The notes under the pieces are model-generated. The model had not been told where the DNA came from. It did not search any database and saw only the letters and a program-made list of their open reading frames with translations. Shown one piece after another: positions 27,907-50,264 of a stretch of 53,993 bases of DNA. The stretch is from Thermoprotei archaeon. GTDB taxonomy: Archaea > Thermoproteota > Thermoprotei > Thermofilales > B69-G16. The first letter of the stretch is position 1. Every line of letters begins with the position of its first letter. The DNA lies in contig QMRG01000001.1 in assembly GCA_003649235.1 (NCBI GenBank), positions 1-53,993 on the forward strand, written 5' to 3'. Both the position numbers and the translations under genes were made by a program.

Positions 27907-28213
27907 GCCGCTCACCTCCGAGAAGCTTAGCCAGACGTGTCACAGGGTATTTCTGTGGTAGCAGCAACACAGGCTTTTTGACGTTGACCTCTACGGTAAC
28001 ATACTCACCTGGCAGTTTCGCTAGTTCCTGTGCGATCAGCGTAACTGCCTTGTGTTTCGTCTGCTCAACGGCCTGCTGCTTGACGCGCTGCTCAACTTCG
28101 GCTTGATTGTCAGCTCTTGGCACCACAAAGGTAGTCTCGACATGAAAGACGGCTGCACCGACAGCTACCTTCTGCGGATCGTTCAGGATCTTAGTCTCCT
28201 TAATCTCGATCAC
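27869..28213 (-). CDS. hypothetical protein embedded between folE and queC
   Basis: GGAGG (28226..28222) is followed after 8 nt by GTG 28213. The product begins MIEIKETKILNDPQKVAVGAAVFHVETTFVVP.. and matches no motif I recognise. It overlaps the queC start by 38 nt. Confidence 0.45.
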   Translation of the reverse strand: MIEIKETKILNDPQKVAVGAAVFHVETTFVVPRADNQAEVEQRVKQQAVEQTKHKAVTLIAQELAKLPGEYVTVEVNVKKPVLLLPQKYPVTRLAKLLGGERHASSDTSVRRTG

Positions 28214-28218
28214 ACCTA

Positions 28219-28797
28219 TCACCTCCTATGTGCAAGTCTCAACTTGAGGAACTCGTCTCGGGGTGCAGTGTTCCAGAGGAAGACTCCACGGCATGCGCTG
28301 CAGGTGTACGTTGACGGCTGAAAGCCCTCGAGTAGCTTGCAGGTGTGGATTGCTTCAGTTACGACGATGACACCGTTCGGTTGCAGTGTCTTCCAGAGCT
28401 CGTCCGCAATCTGCGAAGTAAACCGCTCCTGGATTTGCGGTCGTAGCGCATACTTCTCCACGAGTTGATCGAGCTTCGACATGCCCGTCACTTGATTCCG
28501 CGGAATATAACCAATATCGACGGTTCCATAGAACACCGCCAAGTGATGCTCGCATATGCTCACAAACGGTATGCCGAACGACGCAACGAGATCGGACCTC
28601 TCTGTGTACGTGCGTGTCAGTGTCACTTCACGGTTGTAGCCCTCAGTCATCCGTAGCAGCACGGAAGCTACACGGATCGGTGTTCGTTTGAAGGCCTCAC
28701 TGTTAGGATCAAGTCCGAGCTCTTCGAGGATGGCCTTAACATGTCTCGCTATGACTTTTGCCTTCGGATGGCTTTCAAACGGGACTAATGCCGACAC
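28219..28797 (-). CDS. folE: GTP cyclohydrolase I
   Basis: GAGGAGGAGGTGAAA precedes the GTG. It has FVSICEHHLAVFYGTVDIGYIP, GMSKLDQLVEKYALRPQIQERFTSQIA and VVTEAIHTC, which are the classic FolE blocks. Confidence 0.85.
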   Translation of the reverse strand: MSALVPFESHPKAKVIARHVKAILEELGLDPNSEAFKRTPIRVASVLLRMTEGYNREVTLTRTYTERSDLVASFGIPFVSICEHHLAVFYGTVDIGYIPRNQVTGMSKLDQLVEKYALRPQIQERFTSQIADELWKTLQPNGVIVVTEAIHTCKLLEGFQPSTYTCSACRGVFLWNTAPRDEFLKLRLAHRR

Positions 28798-28801
28798 ACT
28801 T

Positions 28802-29464
28802 TCACCTCCTCCTCACTTTACCCCAGATGAGGACATGTAGCTGAGGCAGCAGCCTCACATTGGGTCTGCGAATCTTCTGAACGACTTCAGCGAGCTCACC
28901 GAGCTTCTTGACATAGTCGGCTCTCCAAGTTTGCCCTTTGAACAGCGCATTGTTCGGCTGGAATACAATTGGAACTCTGGCCGGTACTCCTGCACGCTCA
29001 CAGAACCGCATTGCTTCGAGAATGTCCTTCTCATCGTTCACGACGAACTTTAGTTGCACGTTGCGCTTTTCTCGTGCAAAGCGACCTACAATGTCAGGTC
29101 GCGCATGCTGAAGCTGTCCCGAATTCGACAGCTTCGGACTCACTGTCCAGAGGTCTACGTCATAGTCTGCCCAGATCGTTCCGTTTGTCTCAATTGTCAC
29201 ACGCCTATGGCGCAACCGATCAAGTAGCTCCGTGAGGTCTTGCAGCAGCGGCTCACCACCCGTAATACAGATGTTGCGGCAACCGAGCTTGTACACCTCA
29301 CTGGCAACCTCCTCTGGTGTCATCTCCTTGAACTCTGTCCAGGCATATTTCGTGTCACAGAACGTGCACTTGAGGTTGCAGCCGGACAGCCTCACGAATG
29401 TTGTCGGTCTCCCTATGTCGAGCCCTTCACCTTGGATTGACCGATAGATTTCACACACTTTCAC
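28802..29464 (-). CDS. queE: 7-carboxy-7-deazaguanine synthase (radical SAM)
   Basis: AGGAGGTGGTGAATC precedes the GTG. The N-terminus is IYRSIQGEGLDIGRPTTFVRLSGCNLKCTFCDTKYAW, followed by ITGGEPLL. Confidence 0.8.
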   Translation of the reverse strand: MKVCEIYRSIQGEGLDIGRPTTFVRLSGCNLKCTFCDTKYAWTEFKEMTPEEVASEVYKLGCRNICITGGEPLLQDLTELLDRLRHRRVTIETNGTIWADYDVDLWTVSPKLSNSGQLQHARPDIVGRFAREKRNVQLKFVVNDEKDILEAMRFCERAGVPARVPIVFQPNNALFKGQTWRADYVKKLGELAEVVQKIRRPNVRLLPQLHVLIWGKVRRR

Positions 29465-29802
29465 GATTCACCACCTCCTGTAGGGTTAGTTTGCGTGACC
29501 TCGACGCCGAATTCAGGCGTCTCAAACAAACGCACAGTTATCTCGTTTGCCTTTGGAAAGACTGTCCAGAGCTTGCGCAGGATACACAACGCGAGTTGCT
29601 CGCACGTCATGTTGCCGAGATCTTCATGATCATACCACTTTACTACCTCCCATGTCAACATCTTGACGTCGTGGAAGTCGATCCATCCGTCGATGTCGAT
29701 GACGACCTCTAGGTGATACGTATGTCCATGAGTCCGTCCACATTTCGGATGTCCCTCGATTCGATGCGCAGCGTGGAAGTATGTCTTGTAGATCCTCTTC
29801 AC
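29461..29802 (-). CDS. queD: 6-carboxy-5,6,7,8-tetrahydropterin synthase
   Basis: AAGGAGGTGATAGTCC precedes the GTG. FHAAHRIEGHPKCGRTHGHTYHLEV carries the PTPS/QueD His triad and Cys. 113 aa. Confidence 0.8.
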   Translation of the reverse strand: MKRIYKTYFHAAHRIEGHPKCGRTHGHTYHLEVVIDIDGWIDFHDVKMLTWEVVKWYDHEDLGNMTCEQLALCILRKLWTVFPKANEITVRLFETPEFGVEVTQTNPTGGGES

Positions 29803-37250: not shown

Positions 37251-37511
37251 TTAGAAGTTGGACTCTTGGGCAGTCTGAGCAGCTGCCCAGTAGGCCTTGG
37301 CTCCGTCGTATCTGACTACGACTAATCCCTTGTCGAGTAGCTGCTTGAGTCTCCTGTATGCAGAGCCAGTCTTCACTCCGAGAAAAGCGGCAACCTCAGC
37401 AGTTGTCATTGCGTGCTGAGAAAGCTCAGCTAGAAGCTCCTCGTTGGAAACTCTGCTTCCGACAGCCTTCTCGGCAGGAAGCTTGTTAAACTCATCCAAA
37501 CTGATTGGCAT
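37251..37511 (-). CDS. winged helix-turn-helix (MarR/ArsR-like) protein
   Basis: GGAGGTG is followed after 9 nt by ATG 37511. MTTAEVAAFLGVKTGSAYRRLKQLLDKGLVVVRYDG is wHTH-like. Confidence 0.55.
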   Translation of the reverse strand: MPISLDEFNKLPAEKAVGSRVSNEELLAELSQHAMTTAEVAAFLGVKTGSAYRRLKQLLDKGLVVVRYDGAKAYWAAAQTAQESNF

Positions 37512-37519
37512 CCCACCAT

Positions 37520-37597
37520 TCACCTCCCATGCGCTTTGTCATGGGTACCTCCAACCCATGACCGTGAGATACTCAAACCGAAGTCAAAAGTTCTCAT
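37520..37597 (-). CDS. possible 25-aa leader ORF
   Basis: AGGAGGT is followed after 7 nt by ATG 37597. Its stop TGA lies inside the SD of the next gene. It begins about 20 nt after the predicted transcription start. Confidence 0.25.
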   Translation of the reverse strand: MRTFDFGLSISRSWVGGTHDKAHGR

Positions 37598-37620: not shown

Positions 37621-37658
37621 CTATTTAATCTTCTCCAAGATTTATAAATGTTTTGGAG
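37621..37658 (-). promoter_or_regulatory. archaeal promoter: BRE-like CCAAAACA + TATA box TTTATAAA, flanked by inverted repeat CTCCAA/TTGGAG, second AT box GATTAAAT
   Basis: The - strand reads CTCCAAAACATTTATAAATCTTGGAGAAGATTAAATAG, with an SD about 30 nt downstream of the TATA box. The composite CAAAACATTTA-N15-ATTAAAT recurs at 43942..43975. Confidence 0.55.
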
Positions 37659-37659
37659 C

Positions 37660-37893
37660 TCAGCGAATGTAGGCTAGGGTTCTGTGATCTCGGTTATCGG
37701 ATGGCTCGACATGTAGAAGGTAGTCCTTGGCAATTTCGAGAGTGCCTATAGCCATGGGTTTGCAATCGTCTAGGAGATTGAGGATGACATATACACGAGC
37801 AGGTAGCTGTTCGTCAGGAGGAACGCTTTGAATGCGCTTTCGGAGCTCAACAATCAACGGGTCTAGAAGACGTTCGATGTCAACTTTGGCCAT
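37660..37893 (-). CDS. hypothetical protein
   Basis: GAGGAGGTGAAGTC precedes the ATG. 77 aa. Confidence 0.5.
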   Translation of the reverse strand: MAKVDIERLLDPLIVELRKRIQSVPPDEQLPARVYVILNLLDDCKPMAIGTLEIAKDYLLHVEPSDNRDHRTLAYIR

Positions 37894-38393
37894 GACTTCA
37901 CCTCCTCGGAGAGAGCTTTCACGATTCGGTCGAGTTGCTCTTTTGACTTGAGTCCGAATATCGAAATGTATCTCGGAAAAACGAGCACATTGTGTCCAGC
38001 GACAGTGACCGTTGCACAGTTCGTATATTCGGGTGTGTAGATGGCGCCATGCTCTGCAAGAGCCTCAATGTCGATGGGCTCGTCGACGTAGACCCCTGCA
38101 GACAGCAGCGTAACGCGCGTCTTCGGCTCTGGCAGCTTGCCAACGTACTTCTCGAGCTCCTTAGTAGCTTCTCGTACGACATCACCATAGTTGAGTGTCT
38201 TCAGTCCGTGAAGTATCACCTTACCTGTCCTGTAGATCTGCATGTAGTACTTCCAGTAGTACTTCACCGCCGGAAACGTCCACGGATCATACTCCGCCAG
38301 ACCTTCCGGTAGCTGCTCGTAGATGTACTCGAGGTCGAATATCACATCAGGATACTCGACCAGCACGTTCACATTGTTGATGACCACTTTCAC
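37863..38393 (-). CDS. TATA-binding protein (TBP)-like two-repeat protein
   Basis: AGGAGGT is followed after 7 nt by the GTG. Repeat 1 is INNVNVLVEYPDVIFDLEYIYEQLPEGLAEYDPWTFPAV..IYRTGKVILHGLKTLNYGDVVREATKELEKY. Repeat 2 is VTLLSAGVYVDEPIDIEALAEHGAIYTPEYTNCATV..VLVFPRYISIFGLKSKEQLDRIVKAL. Both parallel the archaeal TBP repeat pattern (I.N.v......dLe.......Y.Pe.FPg......i..sGK....G.ks.e....a...l). Confidence 0.5.
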   Translation of the reverse strand: MKVVINNVNVLVEYPDVIFDLEYIYEQLPEGLAEYDPWTFPAVKYYWKYYMQIYRTGKVILHGLKTLNYGDVVREATKELEKYVGKLPEPKTRVTLLSAGVYVDEPIDIEALAEHGAIYTPEYTNCATVTVAGHNVLVFPRYISIFGLKSKEQLDRIVKALSEEVKSWPKLTSNVF

Positions 38394-38608
38394 CGTTTCG
38401 ACCTCCTGATTCTATCTAGTTGACGTAACAACAACACTCTCTCGGGCGCTTGTAAGTGTAGCCCGCACGCGCACACAGCAATCCAATAGTTGACCCGTTT
38501 CCTCTTGAATATCGTGAGCCGTCGACCGCAGTTTGGGCATCGACACCGATGTGCCTCTTCTACTTCTCGCTTAAAGGTATTTGCACCGAACCCCATTTTC
38601 CTCGACAT
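38390..38608 (-). CDS. zinc-ribbon protein
   Basis: GGAGAGG is followed after 10 nt by ATG 38608. The Cys motif is CRCPNCGRRL..VCACG. Confidence 0.45.
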   Translation of the reverse strand: MSRKMGFGANTFKREVEEAHRCRCPNCGRRLTIFKRKRVNYWIAVCACGLHLQAPERVLLLRQLDRIRRSKR

Positions 38609-38766
38609 AGCAGAAAACCTCTCCGTCGTAACCACTTCCGTCCGCAGACACAGCGAATTTCTCGGGTCTCCTTGCTACAGACGAGACGTCGTCCGCATAT
38701 ACACTGGAACGCAAACGGAAAGTGCGTCTCTTCGAGCTGTCTAAATCGCTCAATCGAGATCGGCAT
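38560..38766 (-). CDS. zinc-ribbon protein
   Basis: AGAGGTGAGG is followed after 4 nt by the ATG. The Cys motif is CICGRRL..CVCGRKW. Confidence 0.45.
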   Translation of the reverse strand: MPISIERFRQLEETHFPFAFQCICGRRLVCSKETREIRCVCGRKWLRRRGFLLCRGKWGSVQIPLSEK

Positions 38767-39484: not shown

Positions 39485-39832
39485 TCACTCTCCAACAGCA
39501 ACAACTTCAGGTGTACCTTCGTGAAGGTAAACGTCACATCCGGAAATCGTAAAGATCCGTCTGAAGAGATGCCATTTCAGTGCTCGACAAACTCTTCGTT
39601 CACGCTCTTCGCGCTCTCTTTCGTCAGAGCTCAACGCCTGCAAGTGCTGTCGATACAAGTAATGCCAGTCCACGAGCAGCCACCTCGGCGTTATGTTGCG
39701 TTCATGTAGCTTCATCAAGGCTCGTAACAGTCTTCGCTTTAACTGTGGCGTCAGCTTCACTTCGACGTAGTTGTTGCCTTCAAGCATCACCAGTATGGTT
39801 TCCTCGTCAAGCCTGTTCACATTAGACTTCAT
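39485..39832 (-). CDS. hypothetical protein
   Basis: GAGGAG is followed after 7 nt by ATG 39832. Confidence 0.45.
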   Translation of the reverse strand: MKSNVNRLDEETILVMLEGNNYVEVKLTPQLKRRLLRALMKLHERNITPRWLLVDWHYLYRQHLQALSSDEREREERERRVCRALKWHLFRRIFTISGCDVYLHEGTPEVVAVGE

Positions 39833-40112
39833 CGTCAAGCTCCTCTTTCATCAACTCATTTATGCAGTCGACGCAGTAGCCCTTGTTTATCGCCCAATCC
39901 CAGTAACTCAGCATCTTTCCACACCTCTTGCACGGACGAGGTGGCAAGTCCAGCTCCTGTATCTTCTGCTTAATCGGATCCCACAGGGAGTCCGCCTCAT
40001 TAATGTTACAGGCAACGTCCAATGCCTCCATCAGCAATTCTGCTAGTCGCTCAGCCTGCTCCCTGTACCACTCTTCGTAGTCGAACTCATCTGCTTGCTT
40101 CATGGAACTCAT
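39822..40112 (-). CDS. acidic protein with C-terminal CxxC..CxxC zinc motif
   Basis: The start is at ATG 40112 (AAATGA overlap) or 40103. The Cys motif is CKRCGKML..CVDCINEL. Confidence 0.45.
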   Translation of the reverse strand: MSSMKQADEFDYEEWYREQAERLAELLMEALDVACNINEADSLWDPIKQKIQELDLPPRPCKRCGKMLSYWDWAINKGYCVDCINELMKEELDDEV

Positions 40113-40363
40113 TTCTCCTCGCAGCGCCAAATCCAATACAGTGCTCGTAACACTGCAAATACGCATGCAGCAACCTGCATAACTTTGGCAGGGATCTCAC
40201 CAAAAGCGACACCTAAAGCCCAGCTTCCTAACTTCCCAACTATGCATATGACGATGACTTCTTCCAGAGCTCGCCCAATACAACTCTTGAGTATCTTACG
40301 TCCTTCCCTTACCAACGTCTTCGCCAAGATCTTCAGAAACTGTCTGAACGTACGGTCACTCAA
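40109..40363 (-). CDS. small membrane protein
   Basis: AAGGAGGGAGAGGC precedes the TTG. There are two hydrophobic helices. Confidence 0.45.
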   Translation of the reverse strand: MSDRTFRQFLKILAKTLVREGRKILKSCIGRALEEVIVICIVGKLGSWALGVAFGEIPAKVMQVAACVFAVLRALYWIWRCEEK

Positions 40364-40586
40364 GCCTCTCCCTCCTTTTCATCTCTCGATACGCACACCA
40401 CGCAGTGAACAGCAGCCATCCGAACAGTACGACTACTGCGGCATACGGATTGACTTCTGCAACTAGCAGTGCAAGTGTCATACCAATGAGGTTCGCTCCG
40501 AAGAACTCTACTTGTGGCAGTAGACCTTTGTCTTCGCGAATTTCCTTGACGATTTCTCGTAGCCAGGCTACGACCTTCCTGATCAC
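40356..40586 (-). CDS. small membrane protein
   Basis: AAGGAGG is followed after 8 nt by the GTG. The TM segments are ANLIGMTLALLVAEV and AAVVVLFGWLLFTAW. Confidence 0.45.
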   Translation of the reverse strand: MIRKVVAWLREIVKEIREDKGLLPQVEFFGANLIGMTLALLVAEVNPYAAVVVLFGWLLFTAWCAYREMKRRERLE

Positions 40587-40834
40587 AAGTCCAGCCTCCT
40601 TGCGACGAGCCTCGCAGCCAATTTCAGCTCTCTGATGGCTTCCGCGTCAGTCTCGTCCACCTCAGCAAGACGTCTGATGATTTCCATGGCGAGCTCTCTC
40701 ACACTGGGTACTCTAGCCTCACTCTTATCCTTGAAGTGCGGACACTTGTCCTTCCGAGGATTGTACTCACCTGTGAAGGCACAGACCCATCCGACGCGTG
40801 AATGCGAGTAGTAGTAACACTTCTCACAGAGCAT
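40583..40834 (-). CDS. Cys-rich small protein
   Basis: The Cys motif is MLCEKCYYYSH..VCAF..KCPHF. The stop overlaps the start of its neighbour. Confidence 0.45.
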   Translation of the reverse strand: MLCEKCYYYSHSRVGWVCAFTGEYNPRKDKCPHFKDKSEARVPSVRELAMEIIRRLAEVDETDAEAIRELKLAARLVARRLDL

Positions 40835-41126
40835 TCCAGAACTCCCTCCACGGTACGTTGTCGTCCAACTTACTGACTAACCAGTTGCGACCTTCCGCGT
40901 ACACGATCTGTAGGCATCCGCTTCTCTCTAGCTTTCTGGCCACCCTGAAGGCAAATACTTCAGGATGGTAGTGCCATCGCTTGAGGTATTTGTAATACCG
41001 ATACGACGACCGCTTTTTGTTGTCGCTTACGCCGCCGAACAGGTCCACGATTCTGATGCGCTTGCTATGGCGTCGCCTCAGTTTCGAGAGGATCTTCCGT
41101 ATCAGTCTCATCTCGTCCACTACCAT
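40824..41126 (-). CDS. hypothetical basic protein
   Basis: ORF-track ORF packed between overlapping neighbours. Confidence 0.4.
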   Translation of the reverse strand: MVVDEMRLIRKILSKLRRRHSKRIRIVDLFGGVSDNKKRSSYRYYKYLKRWHYHPEVFAFRVARKLERSGCLQIVYAEGRNWLVSKLDDNVPWREFWNAL

Positions 41127-41335
41127 CCCTCCAGATTAGGCATACGTAAACGTATCCACTCATGGGCATCCGGGGCAGTTATTATTAGAGCGCCTCTTAC
41201 AAACATGGCGATCGACGCATACTTCCAGTCGTTGCGCCTGAAGAAATCAATTACAGTCTCACGGTCCCGCTGAGTCTTCGCAATGACGGCTTCCGTTCTG
41301 CCTCGTTTCCAGCCGACGATTACCCAGACTAACAA
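41120..41335 (-). CDS. hypothetical protein
   Basis: TTG start after GGAGTGGAAGG. It overlaps the upstream ORF by 77 nt, so its reality is uncertain. Confidence 0.3.
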   Translation of the reverse strand: MLVWVIVGWKRGRTEAVIAKTQRDRETVIDFFRRNDWKYASIAMFVRGALIITAPDAHEWIRLRMPNLEGW

Positions 41336-41474
41336 CCTTCCACTCCCCCTTTACGCGTAGTCCACATTTCGGACAGACATACTCATTCACCAGGACAGTG
41401 TTACCCCAACCTCTTGCTTCGACGTCTTTCCGCACACAGACCATTTCAGATCCGCAAAACGGGCACCATGGCAT
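41259..41474 (-). CDS. zinc-ribbon protein
   Basis: GGTGAGGGTG precedes ATG 41474. The Cys motif is MPWCPFCGSEM..VCPKCG. Confidence 0.45.
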   Translation of the reverse strand: MPWCPFCGSEMVCVRKDVEARGWGNTVLVNEYVCPKCGLRVKGEWKVVSLGNRRLETRQNGSRHCEDSAGP

Positions 41475-41479
41475 CACCC

Positions 41480-41887
41480 TCACCACGTAGGCATGCCTTT
41501 CTGTCGCATCCACTCTTCGCTAACGCGTCTGATGACTTCGTTCTCGGGTAGCCGCTCAGCATTTTCAATGAGTGCTCTACGAATTGCCTCCTTCAGGGTC
41601 GTCGACGTCATGACTATCGAATGATAGTCTATTTCGGTCTCCTCCTTCTTCAGTGCTCTCTGAACGTGATGCTCGCAGACGTTACGTCCGGCAATGAAAT
41701 ACTTGGCCTTACGGTCGCAGAACTCACATTTGAGAGTTTCGGGTACTCTTACGGGTCTGATCTCCTCGACGTCGAGCTTCTGTGGTTGCTTGTCCTTTGT
41801 AAAGTAGCGTTTGCATCTCGGACAGCTAACCGGCTCATCGACGCGAGGCGTCCATTCGTGGCCGCAGAAAGGACACTTATACTTCAC
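41480..41887 (-). CDS. double zinc-ribbon protein
   Basis: GGGGAGTGAGATC precedes the GTG. The Cys motifs are KCPFCGHEW..SCPRCKRYF and KCEFCDRKA..VCEHH. Confidence 0.5.
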   Translation of the reverse strand: MKYKCPFCGHEWTPRVDEPVSCPRCKRYFTKDKQPQKLDVEEIRPVRVPETLKCEFCDRKAKYFIAGRNVCEHHVQRALKKEETEIDYHSIVMTSTTLKEAIRRALIENAERLPENEVIRRVSEEWMRQKGMPTW

Positions 41888-41891
41888 GATC

Positions 41892-42071
41892 TCACTCCCC
41901 TAGAATCTGGCCGAGAAGGTTGGCCAATTCGACTTTCCCGGACTGAACGTACTGTTCGCGCAGCTCACGGATACGTGCCTTCCACTGTTTGAAGGCGAGG
42001 CAGTAGCCACGCCAGTCGAAGGACTCGCGAAAGAACTCTGCATCAGTCGGATGCGGTACTCTCAGACTCAT
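41892..42071 (-). CDS. 59-aa ORF missed by the track
   Basis: GAGAGGTG is followed after 7 nt by ATG 42071. The product is MSLRVPHPTDAEFFRESFDWRGYCLAFKQWKARIRELREQYVQSGKVELANLLGQILGE. It fills an otherwise unexplained 155-nt gap. Confidence 0.5.
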   Translation of the reverse strand: MSLRVPHPTDAEFFRESFDWRGYCLAFKQWKARIRELREQYVQSGKVELANLLGQILGE

Positions 42072-42219
42072 CAGATGACACCTCTCGAACTACACGGGGC
42101 ATAGCTTGAATGGACGAAACGATGATGCTTGCCGCAATGTAAAGAGCAAAGCCGAATAGTGACAGGGCAACCTTGACCTTTTTGAGCGTAAGCTTCACTT
42201 CTCCGAAAGCCTTTCGCAT
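42043..42219 (-). CDS. small membrane protein
   Basis: AGGAGGTGGA is followed after 4 nt by ATG 42219. The TM helix is VALSLFGFALYIAASIIVSSI. Confidence 0.45.
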   Translation of the reverse strand: MRKAFGEVKLTLKKVKVALSLFGFALYIAASIIVSSIQAMPRVVREVSSDESESTASD

Positions 42220-42231
42220 ACTATCCACCTC

Positions 42232-42429
42232 CTATAGCCACCATGTAAGCAGCATCCACACTAGCACTGCTCCTTGAATGATTGCCGCAAGGAGACTCGT
42301 CACAGCTTCCTCCTTCCAGGACTTTCTCAGGTCTCTCTCAGTCACGATTCTGAACAGAGTATTTGTAACGTTCAGGCTGACACCTGCAATAAACCAGCCT
42401 GTGAGGAAGATTTCCAAAGGCGACACCAT
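42232..42429 (-). CDS. two-TM small membrane protein, paralogue 1 (ends ..TWWL)
   Basis: GGAGGTGAG precedes the ATG. The product runs MVSPLEIFLTGWFIAG.. to ..AAIIQGAVLVWMLLTWWL and is similar end to end to 42708..42899. Confidence 0.5.
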   Translation of the reverse strand: MVSPLEIFLTGWFIAGVSLNVTNTLFRIVTERDLRKSWKEEAVTSLLAAIIQGAVLVWMLLTWWL

Positions 42430-42430
42430 C

Positions 42431-42613
42431 TCACCTCCATCTAAATGTTATTCGTTCAAGCTTCTCATAGAAGTTCTGAGCTTCTCGGAGTGCAGCCTGA
42501 TTACCTTGTTGACGTAGAGCACGCAAGGCTATGCCCAGCAGCAGAACCAGCTGCAGACTTTCTTCGCCTTCGAATGTCACGTGCAGGTTTCGTCCGTCAG
42601 AGTAACCTCGCAT
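42431..42613 (-). CDS. hypothetical protein
   Basis: AAGGTGAG is followed after 5 nt by ATG 42613. Confidence 0.4.
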   Translation of the reverse strand: MRGYSDGRNLHVTFEGEESLQLVLLLGIALRALRQQGNQAALREAQNFYEKLERITFRWR

Positions 42614-42711
42614 GTACACTCACCTTCGAACGGACATACATATGGACAGTGTCTACAAGCCTCAGGATGCACGAAGCACTTCAGAGCAGGACACCACTTT
42701 ACGGACATCAT
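42577..42711 (-). CDS. 44-aa Cys-rich protein (9 Cys)
   Basis: TTATGATG overlap with the upstream stop. The product is MMSVKWCPALKCFVHPEACRHCPYVCPFEGECTCEVTLTDETCT. Confidence 0.4.
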   Translation of the reverse strand: MMSVKWCPALKCFVHPEACRHCPYVCPFEGECTCEVTLTDETCT

Positions 42712-42899
42712 AACCACCATGTAACGACGATCCATGCGAGGATGATGCCGTGGAATACGGCTGACACGAGATCGTAAAGGAAGTCTGACCTCCATGAGGG
42801 GTCGAAGTCTCTTTTGGTGAACTTTTGAAGTGCGGATACTGCGTGAAGTGCAGTGGCGCTTGCAAACCAGCCTGTGAGAAACGGCTCAAGGAGAAGCAT
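42708..42899 (-). CDS. two-TM small membrane protein, paralogue 2 (ends ..TWWL)
   Basis: AGGAGGTGA is followed after 5 nt by ATG 42899. The product runs MLLLEPFLTGWFASA.. to ..SAVFHGIILAWIVVTWWL. Confidence 0.5.
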   Translation of the reverse strand: MLLLEPFLTGWFASATALHAVSALQKFTKRDFDPSWRSDFLYDLVSAVFHGIILAWIVVTWWL

Positions 42900-43101
42900 C
42901 GCGTTCACCTCCTACAACACGTGCCTTGTAGGGATCGATTCCTGCGTCACGGAGAGCTTCGACAACTGCACAGTAAATGCAGTCGCCTGCATTACGCCAT
43001 TCGATGACTGGCCTCTCAGACCAGCTAGACGGACGCCTTTCGATGGCGTCACGCAGAATCATCCTCCAGTCAAGCCGAGCTAACAATTCTATCAGGCGCA
43101 T
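42886..43101 (-). CDS. hypothetical protein
   Basis: GAGGTG is followed after 5 nt by ATG 43101. Confidence 0.45.
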   Translation of the reverse strand: MRLIELLARLDWRMILRDAIERRPSSWSERPVIEWRNAGDCIYCAVVEALRDAGIDPYKARVVGGERDASP

Positions 43102-43874
43102 TCAAACACCTCGGAGAGGAGTCTCATAACACCGTCTTTTACGGAAGTTGACCAGGAGAATGATGGCTTAGGAGTCGTCACGCTATACTCAAAACGAGAC
43201 AGATGATACTTATATTTCAGGTCAAGATTCGGATGACGCAGACAAAAATTGCGGAAGATGTTCAGGATGTCGTTAACCGACGTTTGAACTCCTGTGCAGA
43301 TGAAGGCTTCTTGAAGGTCGGACTGCGCGAACCGAATGATGTTCCTGCAGGCGTCATCTACATGAATGAAATCTCTTGTTTGGTTACCGTTACCGTAGAC
43401 GTGTAGGACACCGCCTCGCTTGAGTGTCTTGACCCAACGTGCGATTAGATCGTCCTTCAGACGAAGGTAGTTGCTGCCGCCGTAGACGTGTGACAGGTAG
43501 AAGACGCGACCGTTGAGTTGTTTCACGACACGTGATGCGGCTCTTTTCAGGCAGCCGAAGAGGGTGGAGGGTGGATCGAACGAACTGGCAAACAGCAAAT
43601 CGATGCCGTGGACGTTGCAGATCTCTGCGATCTGAGCTGTAGCATAAAGGTTGGTGCGTAAAGAGGTTTCGATTTGCGCACAAGTGTCAGATGCGGAGAC
43701 AGCTGCAAGATGAATGACCATGTCGACGTTGGAGATGGCCTGCTCGATGCTGTCGAAGTCGGTGATGTCGTGGCCAGATTTGATGTCGTAGCTGATGAAC
43801 TCCCAAGAAGCAGGGAAGAAGCGTCTGAGGTTGCTGCCGATGTAGCCTTCGCCACCTGTAACAAGGACCCTCAT
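43092..43874 (-). CDS. NAD(P)-dependent epimerase/dehydratase-like (extended SDR) protein with atypical active site
   Basis: The Rossmann motif is MRVLVTGGEGYIGSNL, followed by VIHLAAV and GNGNQTRDFIHVDD. Where SDRs carry YxxxK, this protein has FGCLK. Confidence 0.55.
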   Translation of the reverse strand: MRVLVTGGEGYIGSNLRRFFPASWEFISYDIKSGHDITDFDSIEQAISNVDMVIHLAAVSASDTCAQIETSLRTNLYATAQIAEICNVHGIDLLFASSFDPPSTLFGCLKRAASRVVKQLNGRVFYLSHVYGGSNYLRLKDDLIARWVKTLKRGGVLHVYGNGNQTRDFIHVDDACRNIIRFAQSDLQEAFICTGVQTSVNDILNIFRNFCLRHPNLDLKYKYHLSRFEYSVTTPKPSFSWSTSVKDGVMRLLSEVFECA

Positions 43875-43941
43875 GTTCTGGTACCTCGGAACTTAGGGTT
43901 CTACAAGAATACTGTCTTCATCATCATCAACTGTTCGGTTA

Positions 43942-43975
43942 ATTTAATCTCCGAACATCTATTTAAATGTTTTGC
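43942..43975 (-). promoter_or_regulatory. archaeal promoter (GCAAAACA + TATA box TTTAAATA + downstream GGAGATTAAAT hairpin)
   Basis: The - strand reads GCAAAACATTTAAATAGATGTTCGGAGATTAAATTAACCGAAC, with a GTTCGG/CCGAAC stem. It lies about 85 nt upstream of the SDR ATG and shares CAAAACATTTA-N15-ATTAAAT with the promoter at 37621..37658. Confidence 0.5.
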
Positions 43976-44168
43976 TCTTGGAGCGCTTCACATAGCACAG
44001 CTCAAGGTAGACGCAGATGCCCTGCTCAACGAGGTGTATCTGATCACTGCCGACCTCACGCTGAATTTCGCAGCTAGCTGCCACCTCGACATCGTCGATC
44101 GTGAAGCCGAGAGTCTTCGCATAGCGTGCCAACATGTTCAGTTTGCGTTCCACTTCCCTGAAGCTCAA
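43959..44168 (-). CDS. hypothetical protein
   Basis: AGGAGGTGA is followed after 5 nt by TTG 44168. Confidence 0.4.
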   Translation of the reverse strand: MSFREVERKLNMLARYAKTLGFTIDDVEVAASCEIQREVGSDQIHLVEQGICVYLELCYVKRSKSKTFK

Positions 44169-44180
44169 ACCGCTCACCTC

Positions 44181-44507
44181 CTAGCTTACGACAGTGAAGC
44201 CGTGCTTGTTAGCCTCATGCACGAGAGCTTCAAGTGCAGCAGCCCTAAAACCAGCATCTTCGAGATACTGATGAATCTGCTCGATTGCGGCATGCAACGC
44301 CACGTAAAGCGTTCCCACAGTCACATGCTTCTGATTTTTCACCTTAGACAATATCGGTACGGGTATGTATGCGAAAGCCACTACGCTGGCCAGAAGCCTA
44401 CCATGTGCCTTCTTGATGTCCTCGTCATACTTCTCTGCTTCCTTCAGCACCTTCTTGACCTCTTCCTGTTGCCTCATTACAGCCTTAAACCACTCCTTAG
44501 GATCCAT
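44181..44507 (-). CDS. hypothetical protein
   Basis: GGAGGTGA is followed after 5 nt by ATG 44507. Confidence 0.45.
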   Translation of the reverse strand: MDPKEWFKAVMRQQEEVKKVLKEAEKYDEDIKKAHGRLLASVVAFAYIPVPILSKVKNQKHVTVGTLYVALHAAIEQIHQYLEDAGFRAAALEALVHEANKHGFTVVS

Positions 44508-45045
44508 CCACGTCACCTCCAAATAACTGTCGGACGGCTTCTTCGTTGTCCCAGACGTCATGCACGAGAATCAACGTTCGCTTCTCATTTACAACCTTGA
44601 TGGCTCGCACGACATCCGTCGTATCAACGGTCCATACGAGTAGCCCACTCTGGAATCCTTTGAAGCCACTCTCGACATCGAACTCGTATTCGACCTTCGG
44701 AACGTTGCCGTCCTGATCCATGTAGACCGTTGTCTTGATCTTTTCGAGGCAGACATCGAGCTCAAATTCCTCGACTCGAACGAGATCATGCCATGGCTTA
44801 CTACGATACATGCGGAGGAACTTCCGTGCTAGGTGTCGTGACGAGAACGCACCGACAATGTGGTAGTCTGAGTAGACGCCTTCTGTCACCAGCACGACGA
44901 AGGGACGGCTTCCATCGACGAACCATGCATTGCATTCCTCGCAGTGGTAGTGCCCACTCAACAACTTCTTGGCCTTCGCTCCGCAGTACGGACAGTGAAC
45001 GTCTTGGACTCCGTCTGGATTGTATCGACCCGTGATTACCTTCAT
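44497..45045 (-). CDS. protein with N-terminal zinc ribbon
   Basis: AGGAGGTGA is followed after 4 nt by ATG 45045. The Cys motif is HCPYCGAKA..HCEECNAW. Confidence 0.5.
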   Translation of the reverse strand: MKVITGRYNPDGVQDVHCPYCGAKAKKLLSGHYHCEECNAWFVDGSRPFVVLVTEGVYSDYHIVGAFSSRHLARKFLRMYRSKPWHDLVRVEEFELDVCLEKIKTTVYMDQDGNVPKVEYEFDVESGFKGFQSGLLVWTVDTTDVVRAIKVVNEKRTLILVHDVWDNEEAVRQLFGGDVDGS

Positions 45046-45049
45046 TGCG

Positions 45050-45676
45050 TCACCTCCTAGGCTCATACCTTGGACATTTTGCTGACCTTGCTAGCCTCTT
45101 CGGAATCCACTTCTGCCACTTCCCGCCATAGAAACAGCCAATGTGCGGTCCTCGCCTTTGACTCCAACGACACGTCAGGCAGCATTCCGCCGTCATTGCT
45201 AGACCTGTCGATAGTGGACGCCTATACGACGCATAGACGGGCTCTTGTCCGTGCGCTTCGCACCACATTTCGTATGCCTTACGCGACAACGAATCGGCAA
45301 GCTCATTCCGCTCACGCGGAATCCACGTCCACGTGATGTTCTCGAACTCTTGCGCTAGTGCAGCAGCTCTCTCGTACATCGAATAGTACAGCCCGCTACG
45401 TGCTTGCCATCGACCAGACATTATGTTGACCAGTAGCTGACTGTCACTGTAGACGACGATCTCAGTTCGTTGCAGCCCTAGTCCTCGTAGCAGCTCGAGT
45501 GCCTTGACTGCCGCTGCAAACTCCGCAACATTATTGCTCATGTCCTTACCCGAGCCGACAACACCATATGATGTCATTATCTGCTTGCCGTCCTGGAAGA
45601 TAGCAACACCAAAACAAGCAGTTCCACCAGGATTGATAGGTTCACATAATCCATCGACATAAACCTCGATTTTCAC
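45050..45676 (-). CDS. rnhA: RNase HI with C-terminal Cys-rich extension
   Basis: GTGA overlap start after GGAGGGAGAGAC. The DEDD residues sit in VYVDG, NNVAEFAA, VYSDSQL and ERNELADSL. The extra C-terminus is ..CCLTCRWSQRRGPHIGC..KCPRYE. Confidence 0.7.
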   Translation of the reverse strand: MKIEVYVDGLCEPINPGGTACFGVAIFQDGKQIMTSYGVVGSGKDMSNNVAEFAAAVKALELLRGLGLQRTEIVVYSDSQLLVNIMSGRWQARSGLYYSMYERAAALAQEFENITWTWIPRERNELADSLSRKAYEMWCEAHGQEPVYASYRRPLSTGLAMTAECCLTCRWSQRRGPHIGCFYGGKWQKWIPKRLARSAKCPRYEPRR

Positions 45677-45834
45677 GTCTCTCCCTCCATAATGACTATC
45701 AGAGCCGACCTTCCACATTTGTTACAGTAAACGTCTGCAACACGTCGCCTGATCAGCTTGTCGTAGTATACGTGATAGGTTAGCTCTTCGTCAGGTGCTC
45801 CACAGAATGGACAGTACAGTCTAGTCATCGTCAT
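45673..45834 (-). CDS. zinc-ribbon protein
   Basis: AAGGAGGT precedes ATG 45834/45828. The Cys motif is YCPFCGAP..YCNKCG. The long 5' extension in the track is Cys/Arg-rich and lacks an SD. Confidence 0.45.
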   Translation of the reverse strand: MTMTRLYCPFCGAPDEELTYHVYYDKLIRRRVADVYCNKCGRSALIVIMEGET

Positions 45835-45952
45835 ACCTCCTTGTCTGTGCAGAAGGTGAAGTCGAACGCCCACCGAATGTGCTTGCAGCACAATACTGGG
45901 CATCGTAGCCGACGTTTCCGTTTGACATCTGGACCTGCAACATACACATCCC

Positions 45953-46300
45953 TCAATACGTGCAGTAGCCGTCATCATAATGAGGACATGTCTCGCACCG
46001 ACTACTGTCGACAAAGCCGCCAACTATCGGACACCACCTCAGCTCTGAGAAGCCGTGCACCTCATAAGTGGTGCCTGGTTGCTGCCAGCTATAGATCACC
46101 TGTCGAGCTGCTTTCTGCCGCTTCGCTTTCTGTAGTTCTCGATATGCGTCGATTAATTTGCTAAGCTCGACAAGCTCACCGTCGACCTCTACGAGCACAG
46201 AACTGGGCTTGGTACGCAATCCGTCCTTTGCATCGAAGTAAATCTCTGTGTGAGTTGCACGAATGATGATGTCTAAAGGTGCAACGTCACTCAGACCCAT
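45953..46300 (-). CDS. hypothetical protein with C-terminal Cys/His motif
   Basis: GTGGAGGAAGAG precedes the ATG. The C-terminus is ..WCPIVGGFVDSSRCETCPHYDDGYC. Confidence 0.45.
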   Translation of the reverse strand: MGLSDVAPLDIIIRATHTEIYFDAKDGLRTKPSSVLVEVDGELVELSKLIDAYRELQKAKRQKAARQVIYSWQQPGTTYEVHGFSELRWCPIVGGFVDSSRCETCPHYDDGYCTY

Positions 46301-46496
46301 TTGTCTCTTCCTCCACTATTCGTAATCGGCCGGAGCGGTAAAGGCTCCAAAGCTCTGCTTGTATCTCGTCGTTCACTCTGACTTCCAGACGCTTCAGTGC
46401 CCGCTCGATAGGATAACACCCGATAGGGTCGTCTGCGATTAACAGCTTTATCTCGTCAATCTTCTCCTTAATTTGCTCAAGTTGCTTCAGGTTCAT
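46287..46496 (-). CDS. hypothetical protein
   Basis: GGAGGTGAG is followed after 4 nt by ATG 46496. Confidence 0.45.
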   Translation of the reverse strand: MNLKQLEQIKEKIDEIKLLIADDPIGCYPIERALKRLEVRVNDEIQAELWSLYRSGRLRIVEEETNGSE

Positions 46497-46518
46497 GCAT
46501 CTCACCTCCAGTTTCGGG

Positions 46519-46612
46519 GCCGATGAGTCCTATCCTCCTGCCCGTCTGCCAGGAGGAAGAGCGGTTTAGCTGCAAAGTGACGGGTCGCTGTGCTCTTCTC
46601 GGACTCATCGGC
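46519..46612 (-). ncRNA. structured three-way-junction element (strand inferred from context)
   Basis: P1 is a 12-bp stem GCCGATGAGTCC/GGACTCATCGGC (46519..46530 with 46601..46612). It encloses the hairpins CCTCCTG/CAGGAGG (46534..46556) and GAAGAGC/GCTCTTC (46556..46598). All pairs are Watson-Crick. It lies between two co-directional genes. Confidence 0.35.
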
Positions 46613-46775
46613 TCTCCCGCTTACCATTCAAAAGTGCATTCGCACTTAGAAACTTACGACTTAGAGTAGCGATCACTTCTCCGCCGTAGACCAAGACAAC
46701 CTTATTGACGCCTGTCTTAAAGCACTCTTCTACGTCGAGTACGATTCGATCAGGCATTCTCTTAACAATCTCCAC
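46605..46775 (-). CDS. 56-aa ORF missed by the track
   Basis: AAGGGGTGAG is followed by GTG 46781 or 46775. The product is MEIVKRMPDRIVLDVEECFKTGVNKVVLVYGGEVIATLSRKFLSANALLNGKRESR. Its stop lies inside stem P1 of the structured element. Confidence 0.4.
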   Translation of the reverse strand: MEIVKRMPDRIVLDVEECFKTGVNKVVLVYGGEVIATLSRKFLSANALLNGKRESR

Positions 46776-46788
46776 GGTCACTCACCCC

Positions 46789-47025
46789 TTACCATCCACT
46801 CCAACCACAATTCGGGCAGACAAGATAGACACCGCCTAACGGGTCCTCTTTGAGCGTGCTACCGCAGATGGGACACAGCTCACCGCTGTGTTCGGGCCAC
46901 TCGTCGAGAGGCATCATTTCCAGCAACCGTCTTATGTTCTCGTTCATCTTACGCCTCCTCCACGCCCTATACAGCCAATCAACAAGTGTGAACAGTGCAA
47001 AGTTAACGATGACGGCTACTAGCAC
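46789..47025 (-). CDS. membrane-anchored zinc-ribbon protein
   Basis: The N-terminal TM helix is LVAVIVNFALFTLV. The Cys motif is CPICGSTL..VCPNCG. Confidence 0.45.
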   Translation of the reverse strand: MLVAVIVNFALFTLVDWLYRAWRRRKMNENIRRLLEMMPLDEWPEHSGELCPICGSTLKEDPLGGVYLVCPNCGWSGW

Positions 47026-47282
47026 TTGAACTCGACCCGCTCGACTTGCTTTCGTATCAGCTCTTTGAGCTGCTCGATGCCTTCGATGTCTGTCGAGTCA
47101 CACTTTGCACAACGTATCTCGTCATAGACGACTTTGCTATAGACACCTCCTGGATCGACATCGTCGAAATCCATTTCGGCATCTCCGTCTTTCACGTATA
47201 TGATATCATTCACGCAAAAGTCTTGATAGACGGTTCCACTGAGAATGAAGCTACGACTTCCGCACTTTCTGCATCGAATCAC
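47019..47282 (-). CDS. zinc-ribbon protein, paralogue of 48076..48324
   Basis: CAAGGAGGTGGACGAGT precedes the GTG. The product runs MIRCRKCGS.. to ..IRCAKCDSTDIEGIEQLKELIRKQ. Confidence 0.5.
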   Translation of the reverse strand: MIRCRKCGSRSFILSGTVYQDFCVNDIIYVKDGDAEMDFDDVDPGGVYSKVVYDEIRCAKCDSTDIEGIEQLKELIRKQVERVEFKC

Positions 47283-47397
47283 ACTCGTCCACCTCCTTGA
47301 GCTGCAATCTCACATACGGCTCGCCTGCCAGCTTCGACAGAAAGATAATGTAGCGTCCTTTCTTGATGATGATTCCACCACCGAAGATACGTTGCAC
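47251..47397 (-). CDS. 48-aa ORF (alternative to track ORF 47279..47461)
   Basis: CGAGGTGA is followed after 5 nt by GTG 47397. The product is MQRIFGGGIIIKKGRYIIFLSKLAGEPYVRLQLKEVDECDSMQKVRKS. Confidence 0.35.
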   Translation of the reverse strand: MQRIFGGGIIIKKGRYIIFLSKLAGEPYVRLQLKEVDECDSMQKVRKS

Positions 47398-47402
47398 AGC
47401 TG

Positions 47403-47549
47403 TCACCTCGGAAATAGAAGCACGGCTTCTCCTGCGTAGTCTCTGTAGATAAACTTACCATGAAAAGGGCATCTCCAAACTTCTTCGTAGGGTTGTCCTC
47501 CGAGACGCTTCACCAGCTTGAGTTGCCTGCCACATAACGGGCAGAACAC
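47403..47549 (-). CDS. zinc-ribbon protein
   Basis: GGAGGTG is followed after 6 nt by GTG 47549. The Cys motif is MFCPLCGRQL..RCPFHG. Confidence 0.45.
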   Translation of the reverse strand: MFCPLCGRQLKLVKRLGGQPYEEVWRCPFHGKFIYRDYAGEAVLLFPR

Positions 47550-47550
47550 G

Positions 47551-47838
47551 TCAGACACCTCCCGTGATCTTCTTGCGGATGTACTCGAGACGACACTTCT
47601 GACTGCAGAACGCGTGGTTCTGCGTGAACACGCTAGGTGGCTCAACAAGTGGCTTGCCGCAGTTCCCACACCGGTGCATGTGAAGTGCACGCATGTAGGC
47701 CTCGCACTGCGTAACAGGCGGCCTAATACGTCGATTTCTATGTGCCAGACAATGCTCGGTTACTCGAATGACTTTGCCGTAGCGATTCGTCTCGTAGACG
47801 CGATAGCAGTAAATGCACGACGGACACAGATGCGTCAT
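47551..47838 (-). CDS. Cys-rich protein with FCS/TRASH-like zinc finger
   Basis: ATGA overlap after GGAGGAG. The Cys motifs are CPSCIYC and RCGNCGKPL..AFCSQKCRLEY. Confidence 0.45.
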   Translation of the reverse strand: MTHLCPSCIYCYRVYETNRYGKVIRVTEHCLAHRNRRIRPPVTQCEAYMRALHMHRCGNCGKPLVEPPSVFTQNHAFCSQKCRLEYIRKKITGGV

Positions 47839-48083
47839 TTCTTCTCCTCCACAAGGTACTCCTCGAGACCGAGCTCCTTGATGACCTCGACGATTTCGCT
47901 TTCGGAGATTTCACCGAGCTGAAGTACATCTCCTGCAAAGTCGCAGGCTTTCTCCGCTGCCCTCTTTATCTGCTTTGGATCGAAGACTATTTCGGGCTCA
48001 CCTGAGACAATTTTGGACGTAAGTGCGAGTGTTGATGCACACGCACCCAAAACAAATGCAATTTTCAGTTTTCGCTCACTCAC
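47835..48083 (-). CDS. putative lipoprotein-like small protein
   Basis: GGAGGTGGAG is followed after 4 nt by GTG 48083. MSERKLKIAFVLGACAST looks like a signal peptide with an LGAC lipobox. Confidence 0.4.
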   Translation of the reverse strand: MSERKLKIAFVLGACASTLALTSKIVSGEPEIVFDPKQIKRAAEKACDFAGDVLQLGEISESEIVEVIKELGLEEYLVEEKK

Positions 48084-48324
48084 GGAACTCCACCTCCACG
48101 TTAAACCAGTTACGAAGGTACTCCTTAAGCTGTTCGAGATCCTCGATGTCGCTGCTACCGCACTTAGCACAGACAATTCTGTCGTAGACGAGCTTACACT
48201 TGCACTTATCGGTGAACGAACCCAAGTAGATGTGTTCATCGAACTCGTCGACTACTGGCGACTCTGCGATGTACCGTCCGAATAGTTTCAGGGTCGTGCA
48301 ACCACACTTTCGACAACGGATCAT
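48076..48324 (-). CDS. zinc-ribbon protein, paralogue of 47019..47282
   Basis: GGAGGAG is followed after 8 nt by the ATG. The product runs MIRCRKCGC.. to ..IVCAKCGSSDIEDLEQLKEYLRNW. Confidence 0.5.
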   Translation of the reverse strand: MIRCRKCGCTTLKLFGRYIAESPVVDEFDEHIYLGSFTDKCKCKLVYDRIVCAKCGSSDIEDLEQLKEYLRNWFNVEVEFRE

Positions 48325-48350
48325 GTGTCCGACTCCTCCACGAGCGCTTT

Positions 48351-48713: not shown

Positions 48714-48831
48714 TCAGTCCACCTCCATGTCGCCTTCTAAAGGCTCTTACGATCTTCCGTATCTCGTCGACGTCCTGTTGAAGCTCCTCCATACCGAAGT
48801 CGTCTACATCAATCAGAGGTTTTCGCATCAT
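48676..48831 (-). CDS. 51-aa ORF missed by the track
   Basis: GGGAGGTGGA precedes ATG 48831 (ATGA overlap). The product begins MMRKPLIDVDDFGMEELQQDVDEIRKIVRAFRRRHGGG... Confidence 0.35.
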   Translation of the reverse strand: MMRKPLIDVDDFGMEELQQDVDEIRKIVRAFRRRHGGGLSENYSQGKMRNR

Positions 48832-49049: not shown

Positions 49050-49050
49050 T

Positions 49051-50258: not shown

Positions 50259-50264
50259 GGTCTG

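Follow-up and report, generated by a model that had tools for sequence, protein, structure and literature searches.

A divergent two-lobe TATA-box-binding protein and its conserved gene cassette in a tailed virus of archaea

The stretch of DNA analysed here, referred to as the window, comprises positions 1 to 53,993 of contig QMRG01000001.1 (GenBank assembly GCA_003649235.1), and our subject is a 176-aa open reading frame (ORF) on its minus strand, at 37863..38393, that encodes a homologue of the TATA-box-binding protein (TBP), hereafter vTBP. The gene starts with GTG at 38393, and a Shine-Dalgarno sequence read from the DNA, AGGAGGT (38401..38407, minus strand), lies 7 nt upstream of this start and inside the 3' end of the preceding gene, in agreement with the good ribosome-binding site ascribed to it in an earlier note made on this DNA from the letters alone. 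Two small zinc-ribbon genes, ZnRA (38560..38766, 68 aa) and ZnRB (38390..38608, 72 aa), precede it, and it is followed by a 77-aa gene, p77 (37660..37893), by a promoter-like B-recognition element and TATA box (BRE/TATA; 37621..37658) and, as the first gene past this promoter, by a winged-helix (wHTH) regulator of the TrmB/MarR-like type (37251..37523), all of them again on the minus strand.

The ORF is a true two-lobe member of the TBP family, and a strongly diverged one. The Pfam TBP profile (PF00352) matches it in two stretches with 35 bits (E-value 1.3e-8) over a cut-off of 22.9, and a phmmer search of the PDB aligned its residues 7-167 with M. jannaschii TBP (2z8u, E-value 1.2e-5). AlphaFold2 (AF2), given an input alignment of 4 sequences, returned a model with a predicted local distance difference test score (pLDDT) of 86.1 and a predicted template modelling score of 0.75, in which the succession of strands and helices characteristic of the saddle fold (S1-H1-S2-S3-S4-S5-H2) occurs twice. 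When this model was compared with the PDB using Foldseek, all of the 44 best matches were TBPs aligned over their full length, with E-values down to 4e-9 and template modelling (TM) scores of 0.55-0.70, after which the scores fell to an E-value of ~1e-3 and a TM of 0.36. The earlier note had proposed a virus-encoded TBP homologue with two repeats, recognised by the motifs I-x-N-V, DLE, Y-x-P-x-x-F/T, GK/FG and G-x-K-S/T, and had pointed to comparison with TBP structures as the way to check it; the motifs agree with the sequence, the predicted fold is the TBP saddle, and the profile and structural matches bear the proposal out. The single-lobe TBP-like folds that it had named as alternatives, the N-terminal domains of RNase HIII and AlkA, were considered together with Rep_trans and rejected, since they do not explain two collinear lobes that score above the Pfam TBP threshold.

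Approximate lobe boundaries place the N-lobe at about residues 1-88 (38130-38393, minus strand) and the C-lobe at about residues 89-176 (37866-38129, minus strand), and the lobes follow each other in the same order as in cellular TBP. Tested with the cellular profiles of the N-lobe and the C-lobe, the viral N-lobe scored 33.2 and 30.0 bits, respectively, and the viral C-lobe 11.6 and 19.9 bits; the margins are small, and four of the five other viral lineages described below point the same way, the N-lobe scores being level in the lineage of contig L004. A lobe swap or an independent duplication had been raised by HMMER, which paired the viral N-lobe best with the C-lobe of P. woesei TBP, but it was rejected because the lobe-specific profiles give the normal N-to-C order. 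Own-lobe profile scores were 83-121 bits for cellular controls and 99-133 bits for the TBPs of hafunaviruses, compared with 33 and 20 bits for the two lobes of vTBP.

A residue map was made by aligning six viral lineages with the TBPs of yeast and P. woesei and 28 canonical matches of TBP size, and the map was read at the canonical TBP residues, whose near-universal occurrence is established (PMC7221094). Invariant in the viral family are N7, Y35, D36, W38, F40, G57, K58, Y119, P121 and S150, with K149 nearly so. The N-lobe retains the groove asparagine (N7), the stirrup phenylalanine (F40) and the lysines that contact phosphate (K58 and K65), keeps its second intercalating residue aromatic (Y54), and has gained an invariant tryptophan, W38, at the tip of the N-terminal stirrup. 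The four intercalating phenylalanines of yeast TBP (F99, F116, F190 and F207) correspond to F40, Y54, T124 and F139, three of the four being aromatic, and the F190 position is occupied by T, I, S, H, V and S across the six lineages. The groove asparagine of yeast N69 is kept as N7, whereas that of N159 is replaced by L96; the threonine pair T124/T215 has become H62 and F146; and in the C-lobe the equivalents of yeast V161, R196 and K211 are S98, T130 and Y142, respectively. The glutamate pair that contacts TFB/TFIIB (yeast E186/E188) is T120/E122 in the clade of the window and D/S or E/S elsewhere, leaving one acidic residue per lineage. As read from this alignment, vTBP is asymmetrically degenerate, with a conserved N-lobe and with the C-lobe, to which TFB and the upstream half of the TATA box are normally bound, as the degraded half. 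By this map vTBP is not a like-for-like TBP, which bears on the suggestion of the earlier note that a viral TBP could redirect the host RNA polymerase to viral promoters or titrate host TFB. Compared with the cellular archaeal TBPs of PF00352 (M. jannaschii 2Z8U, P. woesei 1PCZ/1AIS and S. acidocaldarius 1MP9), it shares the saddle, the 176-aa length, the lobe order and, in the N-lobe, the groove asparagine, the stirrup phenylalanine, the second intercalating aromatic and the SGK/GxK lysines, but it is only ~20-27% identical to them, the equivalents of the C-lobe Phe, Asn, Arg196, Lys211 and Thr215 are replaced, one TFB-contact glutamate is lost, the N-terminal stirrup carries the invariant tryptophan, and the gene is virus-borne, fast-evolving and part of a virus-specific cassette.

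Close homologues of vTBP are few. Three proteins are ~72% identical to it, and a full-database HMMER search (1.8 billion representatives) returned 111 matches, nearly all of them TBP-sized: beyond the closest there was one further protein at an E-value of 1e-32, after which the E-values dropped to 1e-13, with a tail of ordinary TBP-sized proteins. PF00352 is carried by the close homologues and by every match that was returned with a Pfam annotation. The contigs that encode the homologues were fetched and searched with the proteins of the window, which defined six lineages, namely the window with L002 and L003; L001; L012, L013 and L007; L008; L004, L005, L006, L016 and L017; and L009. A scan of IMG/VR with the motif of the viral TBP family itself found nothing, and a metagenome scan added only three short contigs. 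The TBPs of these lineages are 27-73% identical to that of the window, and in at least six virus lineages the gene order is constant, reading ZnRA, ZnRB, TBP, p77, a BRE/TATA box, the wHTH regulator, p102, p73, p347, AAA_24, p253, a family-B DNA polymerase (PolB) and a PD-(D/E)XK nuclease, with ERCC4 further on. The overlap between ZnRA and ZnRB is 49 nt long in the window clade and 16 nt in L004, the ZnRB stop and the TBP start overlap in GTGA, and TBP and p77 overlap by 31 nt. The four genes ZnRA-ZnRB-TBP-p77 form a vertically inherited, translationally coupled block, which closes an early or middle transcription unit and lies directly upstream of the promoter of the wHTH and replication genes. 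Some other genes of the relatives were also noted (L016 13052-13540, L004 10014-10861): the gene after ERCC4 carries intein/LAGLIDADG domains, and in L004 and L016 a split AAA_24 homologue occupies two ORFs. A 172-aa TBP-like gene found in L010, a 27.7-kb contig of ENA ERZ26858887, is unrelated to the archaeal cassette; this contig looks like a polinton-like or viral element of eukaryotes and encodes a protein-primed PolB, a chromodomain rve integrase, an adenain-like protease and BIR/RING proteins.

All four cassette genes are under purifying selection, with synonymous sites being saturated. For TBP the proportion of non-synonymous differences (pN) is 0.15-0.19 and that of synonymous differences (pS) 0.79-0.85. 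The ratio of non-synonymous to synonymous rates (dN/dS), where dS could be computed, is 0.15-0.23 for the two zinc ribbons (ZnRA 0.18-0.22, ZnRB 0.15-0.23; pN/pS ~0.3-0.45), and it is ~0.27 for p77. When the window is compared with L004, no genes of the block evolve faster than TBP and p77, whose normalised scores are 0.27 and 0.32 bits per residue, respectively, compared with 1.3 for the wHTH regulator, 1.0 for PolB and 0.8-0.9 for ZnRA and ZnRB.

The earlier note had also described two CxxC..CxC zinc-ribbon genes upstream of vTBP, and these are real: they lie on the minus strand, tightly linked to it, with the ZnRB stop overlapping the TBP start. The two are paralogues with a common signature, CxCGRRL(V/I)...CxCG, which reads CxCGRRLV...CxCG in ZnRA and CPxCGRRL...CxCG, followed by a basic C-terminal helix, in ZnRB; ZnRB is conserved in L001, L012, L004, L009 and L016, both genes are in frame with all cysteines retained in every related contig that is long enough, and both were left uncalled by the gene callers behind the public records. 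The two genes overlap out of frame, by 49 nt in L001 (9792-9840) as in the window (38560-38608, minus strand), and no in-frame ZnRB start exists downstream of the ZnRA stop. A programmed frameshift that would join them was considered and rejected, and they are taken as separate genes because the length of the overlap varies (49 and 16 nt) and each ORF has its own start.

A resemblance of these ribbons to the N-terminal ribbon of TFB/TFIIB, which the earlier note had offered as speculation, found no support. Like that ribbon (PF08271) they have four cysteines within ~30 residues, but the Pfam profile Zn_Ribbon_TF (PF08271) gave no match to either at an E-value of 1 or below, and the B-reader, the B-linker and the two cyclin folds are absent from the 68-aa ZnRA and the 72-aa ZnRB, which carry a signature of their own. 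Sub-threshold Pfam matches of the two were Lar_restr_allev (E-value 0.007) and DUF1922 (E-value 0.004), the only weak matches of ZnRA being DUF1922/MTH1184, and profile searches of the PDB gave insignificant generic ribbons only (glutaredoxin, Rad50 hook, Rpo12 and MTH1184; E-values 0.01-0.5). No TFB homologue was detected in the window by Pfam among 103 ORFs and the zinc-ribbon candidates; the TFIIB cyclin domain was matched neither in the scanned ORFs of at least 150 aa nor among the 25 of 52 families listed for the 103 ORFs. The ORFs at 46789-47025 and 41259-41513 were considered as a TFB encoded elsewhere in the genome, and were rejected with sub-threshold generic Zn_Ribbon_TF matches only (20 bits, below the cut-off of 29). 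Small zinc ribbons with generic ribbon matches only are scattered on the minus strand through the early region (39822-52824), for example at 41259-41513, 41480-41887, 46789-47025 and 49425-49763.

The p77 gene lies directly 3' of TBP in every lineage, its start overlapping the TBP 3' end, and has a GAGGAGG Shine-Dalgarno sequence of its own. A search of 5.8 billion proteins found only 7 homologues of p77, each of them in this virus group. An AF2 model of moderate confidence (pLDDT 69) shows three helices and a disordered tail that ends in a conserved L-x-Y-I-R/S motif, and a fold search with this model gave no structural match with an E-value below 1. The wHTH regulator, which has weak Pfam matches to TrmB, MarR_2 and HTH_20 and a PHROG match to transcription regulators, is conserved more strongly than any other small gene nearby, with 67-74% identity across lineages. 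In every lineage it shares with ZnRA an N-terminal peptide, MPIS(I/L)(E/D)xF(K/R/N)xL (MPISIERFRQL in ZnRA), and this motif occurs in 2 of the 103 ORFs, those two, with 0.004 matches expected; the peptide may be a docking motif common to ZnRA and the wHTH regulator.

The promoters of the region look canonical. The element at 37621..37658 (minus strand), CCAAAAC-ATTTATAAAT, lies after p77 and upstream of the wHTH-replication operon; it is flanked by the inverted repeat CTCCAA/TTGGAG, and a second A/T box, ATTAAATA, lies ~20 nt downstream. An equivalent box, CCAAAA-n-TTTAAATA or TTTATAAA, is present between p77 and the wHTH gene in 7 of 7 loci, at most ~130 nt upstream of the wHTH start. A near-identical element, AAAACATTTAAATAG ... 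GGAGATTAAATTA, is found at 43939..43968 (minus strand), and we infer that it is the promoter of the unit that runs through a block of small ORFs, AAA_28, ZnRA, ZnRB, TBP and p77. No other A/T box and no gap of 150 nt or more is present between this element and TBP, which makes TBP the penultimate gene of a unit most likely starting at 43960. Three strong BRE/TATA-like boxes lie on the minus strand, at ~49422 (about 49410-49430), 43960 and 37640, and the latter two have a common extended bipartite motif, AAAACATTTAWAWA...GGAGA..ATTAAAT, with a flanking inverted repeat (CTCCAA...TTGGAG). A/T runs of at least 8 nt are four-fold depleted in the window (25 observed, 96 expected), and the gaps between the genes of the structural module, on the plus strand, showed no comparable BRE/TATA box. 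The viral promoters look canonical, which argues that host-type recognition of the BRE by TFB is still in use.

In light of the residue map and the conserved cassette, we tentatively put forward the view, to which we give a little less than even weight but more than to any alternative, that vTBP is a virus-specific initiation factor acting with co-encoded partners and not a plain copy of the host TBP. It would bind TATA-like DNA chiefly through its conserved N-lobe (Asn7, Phe40, Tyr54, Lys58 and Lys65), while the remodelled C-lobe and stirrups would no longer offer the standard surface for binding TFB and kinking DNA; the remodelled surfaces would instead engage virus-encoded partners, a modified contact with host TFB, or both. 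Candidate partners are p77, whose rate of evolution follows that of TBP, and the two zinc ribbons. In this way an initiation complex specific to the virus would draw the host RNA polymerase (RNAP) to viral promoters, with vTBP as a selective factor and not as an extra dose of host-type TBP. By analogy, and with the same reserve, such a complex may be comparable to the alternative TBP/TFB paralogues of haloarchaea and, more loosely, to the vTBP complex of herpesviruses.

Several observations weigh against this proposal. Synteny and translational coupling are no proof of physical interaction, and the window encodes at least 11 small zinc-ribbon or zinc-finger proteins, small zinc-ribbon genes being many in archaeal viruses. 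The 28 canonical TBPs of the residue map were selected by motif, so that the invariance of their four phenylalanines is by construction. Two distant IMG/VR relatives, L019 (IMGVR_UViG_3300032163_000010) and L020 (IMGVR_UViG_3300030329_003381), retain the wHTH-p347-AAA_24-p253-PolB order, but none of the TBP, zinc-ribbon and p77 genes is present within 10 kb, so the cassette is dispensable for this virus type and an accessory module of one sub-lineage; the two can serve as natural comparators that lack TBP there. With promoters that look canonical (BRE and TTTAAATA), host TBP and TFB could suffice, and a special factor is not required by the sequence.

It is conceivable, if rather doubtful, that vTBP is a decoy or dominant-negative TBP for host shut-off, which would occupy host TATA boxes or sequester host TFB or TBP without productive initiation; with a similarly restrained likelihood it would do so, for example, as a heterodimer through the concave face, host transcription being lowered and viral units being favoured by other factors. 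The loss of the kinking phenylalanine and the groove asparagine of the C-lobe and of one of the two TFB-contact glutamates in each lineage, together with the retained DNA-contact residues of the N-lobe, is what such a protein might show; its fast evolution is expected of a host-interaction factor, and archaeal viruses do encode global transcription repressors such as ATV RIP/ORF145 (PMC5123050). A general TATA blocker, however, would also affect the viral promoters, which are themselves canonical, and the kept stirrup residues (Y119, P121 and one acidic residue) and the invariant W38 suggest specific contacts and not a dead surface.

It is unlikely that vTBP is an ordinary functional TBP of host origin that raises the supply of TBP or replaces the host TBP while working with host TFB, presumably as in hafunaviruses. 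The TBP fold, a score above the Pfam threshold and the canonical viral promoters are all consistent with this, as are the TBP genes annotated in HRTV-9, HJTV-2 and ANMV-1 (PMC4372165). The own-lobe profile scores, however, set vTBP far below both the cellular controls and the hafunavirus TBPs, the C-lobe Phe, Asn, Arg, Lys and Thr contacts to DNA are replaced, the TFB-contact glutamate pair is broken, and vertical inheritance with lineage-specific partners does not resemble a recent pick-up.

A more extreme form of the virus-specific initiation complex, which we regard as improbable, is a minimal viral pre-initiation complex in which the N-lobe of vTBP sits on the TATA box, the remodelled stirrups bind p77 and the zinc ribbons, and these small proteins contact the host RNAP directly, TFB being partly or wholly bypassed; if true, archaea would have their own equivalent of the herpesvirus vTBP complex, and an archaeal RNAP would for the first time be seen to be recruited independently of TFB. 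Even less probable is a TBP-derived DNA-bending protein reused outside transcription, in the remodelling of a replication origin, in recombination or in packaging, since, although the gene adjoins a replication module (wHTH, p347, AAA_24 and PolB) and TBP-like folds have been recruited for archaeal-virus replication in Rep-Arvir (PMC13107129), Rep_trans and Rep-Arvir are related by fold only, being ~300 aa long with catalytic Tyr motifs where vTBP has 176 aa, collinear lobes and a score above the TBP profile threshold, and no origin-like repeats were seen adjacent to the gene.

A virus-encoded archaeal TBP as such is already known, and automatic pipelines label members of the viral family as TBP. 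In 2015 the annotation of a metagenomic tailed virus, ANMV-1, already included a tbp gene (Paul et al. 2015, PMC4372165), and GenBank records carry TATA-box-binding protein annotations for Halorubrum virus HRTV-9 (gp39, MZ334505) and Haloarcula virus HJTV-2 (gp41, MZ334513). These are likewise TBP homologues of archaeal Caudoviricetes, with no functional characterisation in the papers found, and the paper that describes the isolates HRTV-9 and HJTV-2 does not discuss their TBPs. A tblastn search of the phage collection with vTBP did not find the TBPs of HRTV-9 and HJTV-2, and a motif scan found TBPs with canonical stirrups in 13 IMG/VR contigs. By their lobe scores the hafunavirus TBPs, unlike that of the window, are near-canonical, and their genes lie in variable regions beside ribonucleotide reductase and restriction-modification genes, without ZnRA, ZnRB or p77. 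What is new here is the divergent, asymmetric TBP family together with its zinc-ribbon/p77 cassette, of which no prior description was found in the literature; TBP is not mentioned in the papers on Bathyarchaeia, ANME-1, methanogen viruses, AVGD and Caudoviricetes. The earlier note did not include the overlapping 77-aa downstream gene, the wider cassette or the prior annotations of TBP in archaeal viruses.

Beta- and gamma-herpesviruses encode a vTBP (ORF24/UL87) that, with small viral partners, some of them Cys-rich, recruits the host polymerase to viral promoters. The likeness to the archaeal protein is one of function only (see also PMC10028899), and there is no sequence relationship: the C-domain of herpesvirus UL87 is a marginal fold match to vTBP (E-value 5.6e-3, TM 0.34), and the host domain and the promoter type differ. 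Eukaryotic giant viruses and poxviruses encode TBP-like proteins, in many cases paired with a TFIIB of their own (Ravarani et al. 2020, PMC7221094); these TBP-like proteins also have two lobes and keep their DNA-contact positions better than the TFIIB-contact positions of the stirrups; structural matches of vTBP to such proteins in BFVD have a TM of 0.5-0.6 with 8-16% identity. Giant viruses and poxviruses usually bring a TFIIB and often an RNAP, however, whereas the window has no detected TFB homologue. Archaeal viruses are believed to depend on the RNAP of their host, and a 2017 review assumes the use of host TBP and TFB (PMC5569661); TFB homologues have been reported in rudiviruses and in Asgard wyrdviruses.

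By its gene content, the window is a tailed virus of an archaeon. It combines the features of an archaeal member of the Caudoviricetes, namely profile matches to Phage_capsid_4 and Phage_tube_2, a tape-measure-sized ORF, PolB, ERCC4, TBP and BRE/TATA boxes. The plus-strand half encodes an HK97-type capsid protein (3791-4693, the Phage_capsid_4 match), the tail tube (8599-9570, Phage_tube_2), an 897-aa tape-measure-sized protein and a 1428-aa fibre-like protein, with radical-SAM and glycosyltransferase genes beside the structural genes, and the minus-strand half encodes the family-B DNA polymerase, a Cas4-like nuclease, an ERCC4/Hef-like nuclease, AAA_24 and RNase H. The minus-strand half also has a complete preQ0 (7-deazaguanine) pathway at 27226-29802, comprising QueC (27226-27915), FolE (28219-28797), a radical-SAM QueE-like protein (28802-29464) and QueD/PTPS (29461-29802), which suggests that the viral DNA is modified; QueC is found in L004 too. 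At the end of the structural module (19193-22651, plus strand) lie the radical-SAM genes, for two large proteins of 422 and 424 aa, and the glycosyltransferase gene, which is of group 1, and an NAD-dependent epimerase/dehydratase is encoded at 43092-43874 (minus strand); these genes may serve modification of virion or host glycans. A run of T9 directly 3' of the major capsid gene (4735-4744, plus strand) looks like an archaeal oligo-T terminator behind a highly expressed gene. Neither direct or inverted terminal repeats of at least 12 nt nor tRNA genes were found in the window.

The closest PolB in the phage collection is that of haloarchaeal tailed viruses, at 24-26% identity, and the phage and archaeal virus collection gave no DNA or capsid match to the window. 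Proteins of the window do occur in NCBI nr, so its genome had been deposited before. A scan of GTDB genomes with the TBP pattern gave no match and thus no lead to a host, and in a scan with the wHTH regulator the sole match was a 36%-identical gene in a Haloarchaeobius genome. The near-neutral isoelectric point of vTBP (5.45) and the GC content of the window (51%) are unlike those of a halophile.

Archaeal viruses are generally assumed to use unchanged host TBP, TFB and RNAP, regulated only by small repressors and activators (PMC5569661). If vTBP is merely an extra TBP, the present finding amounts to a modest annotation. If it does have only one canonical DNA-binding lobe, half of the TFB interface lost and three lineage-specific small proteins at its side, this vertically inherited protein would be a natural separation-of-function variant of a universal initiation factor, and such a variant could reveal how the asymmetry and orientation of TBP work in archaea and how viruses reprogramme a Pol II-like transcription system.

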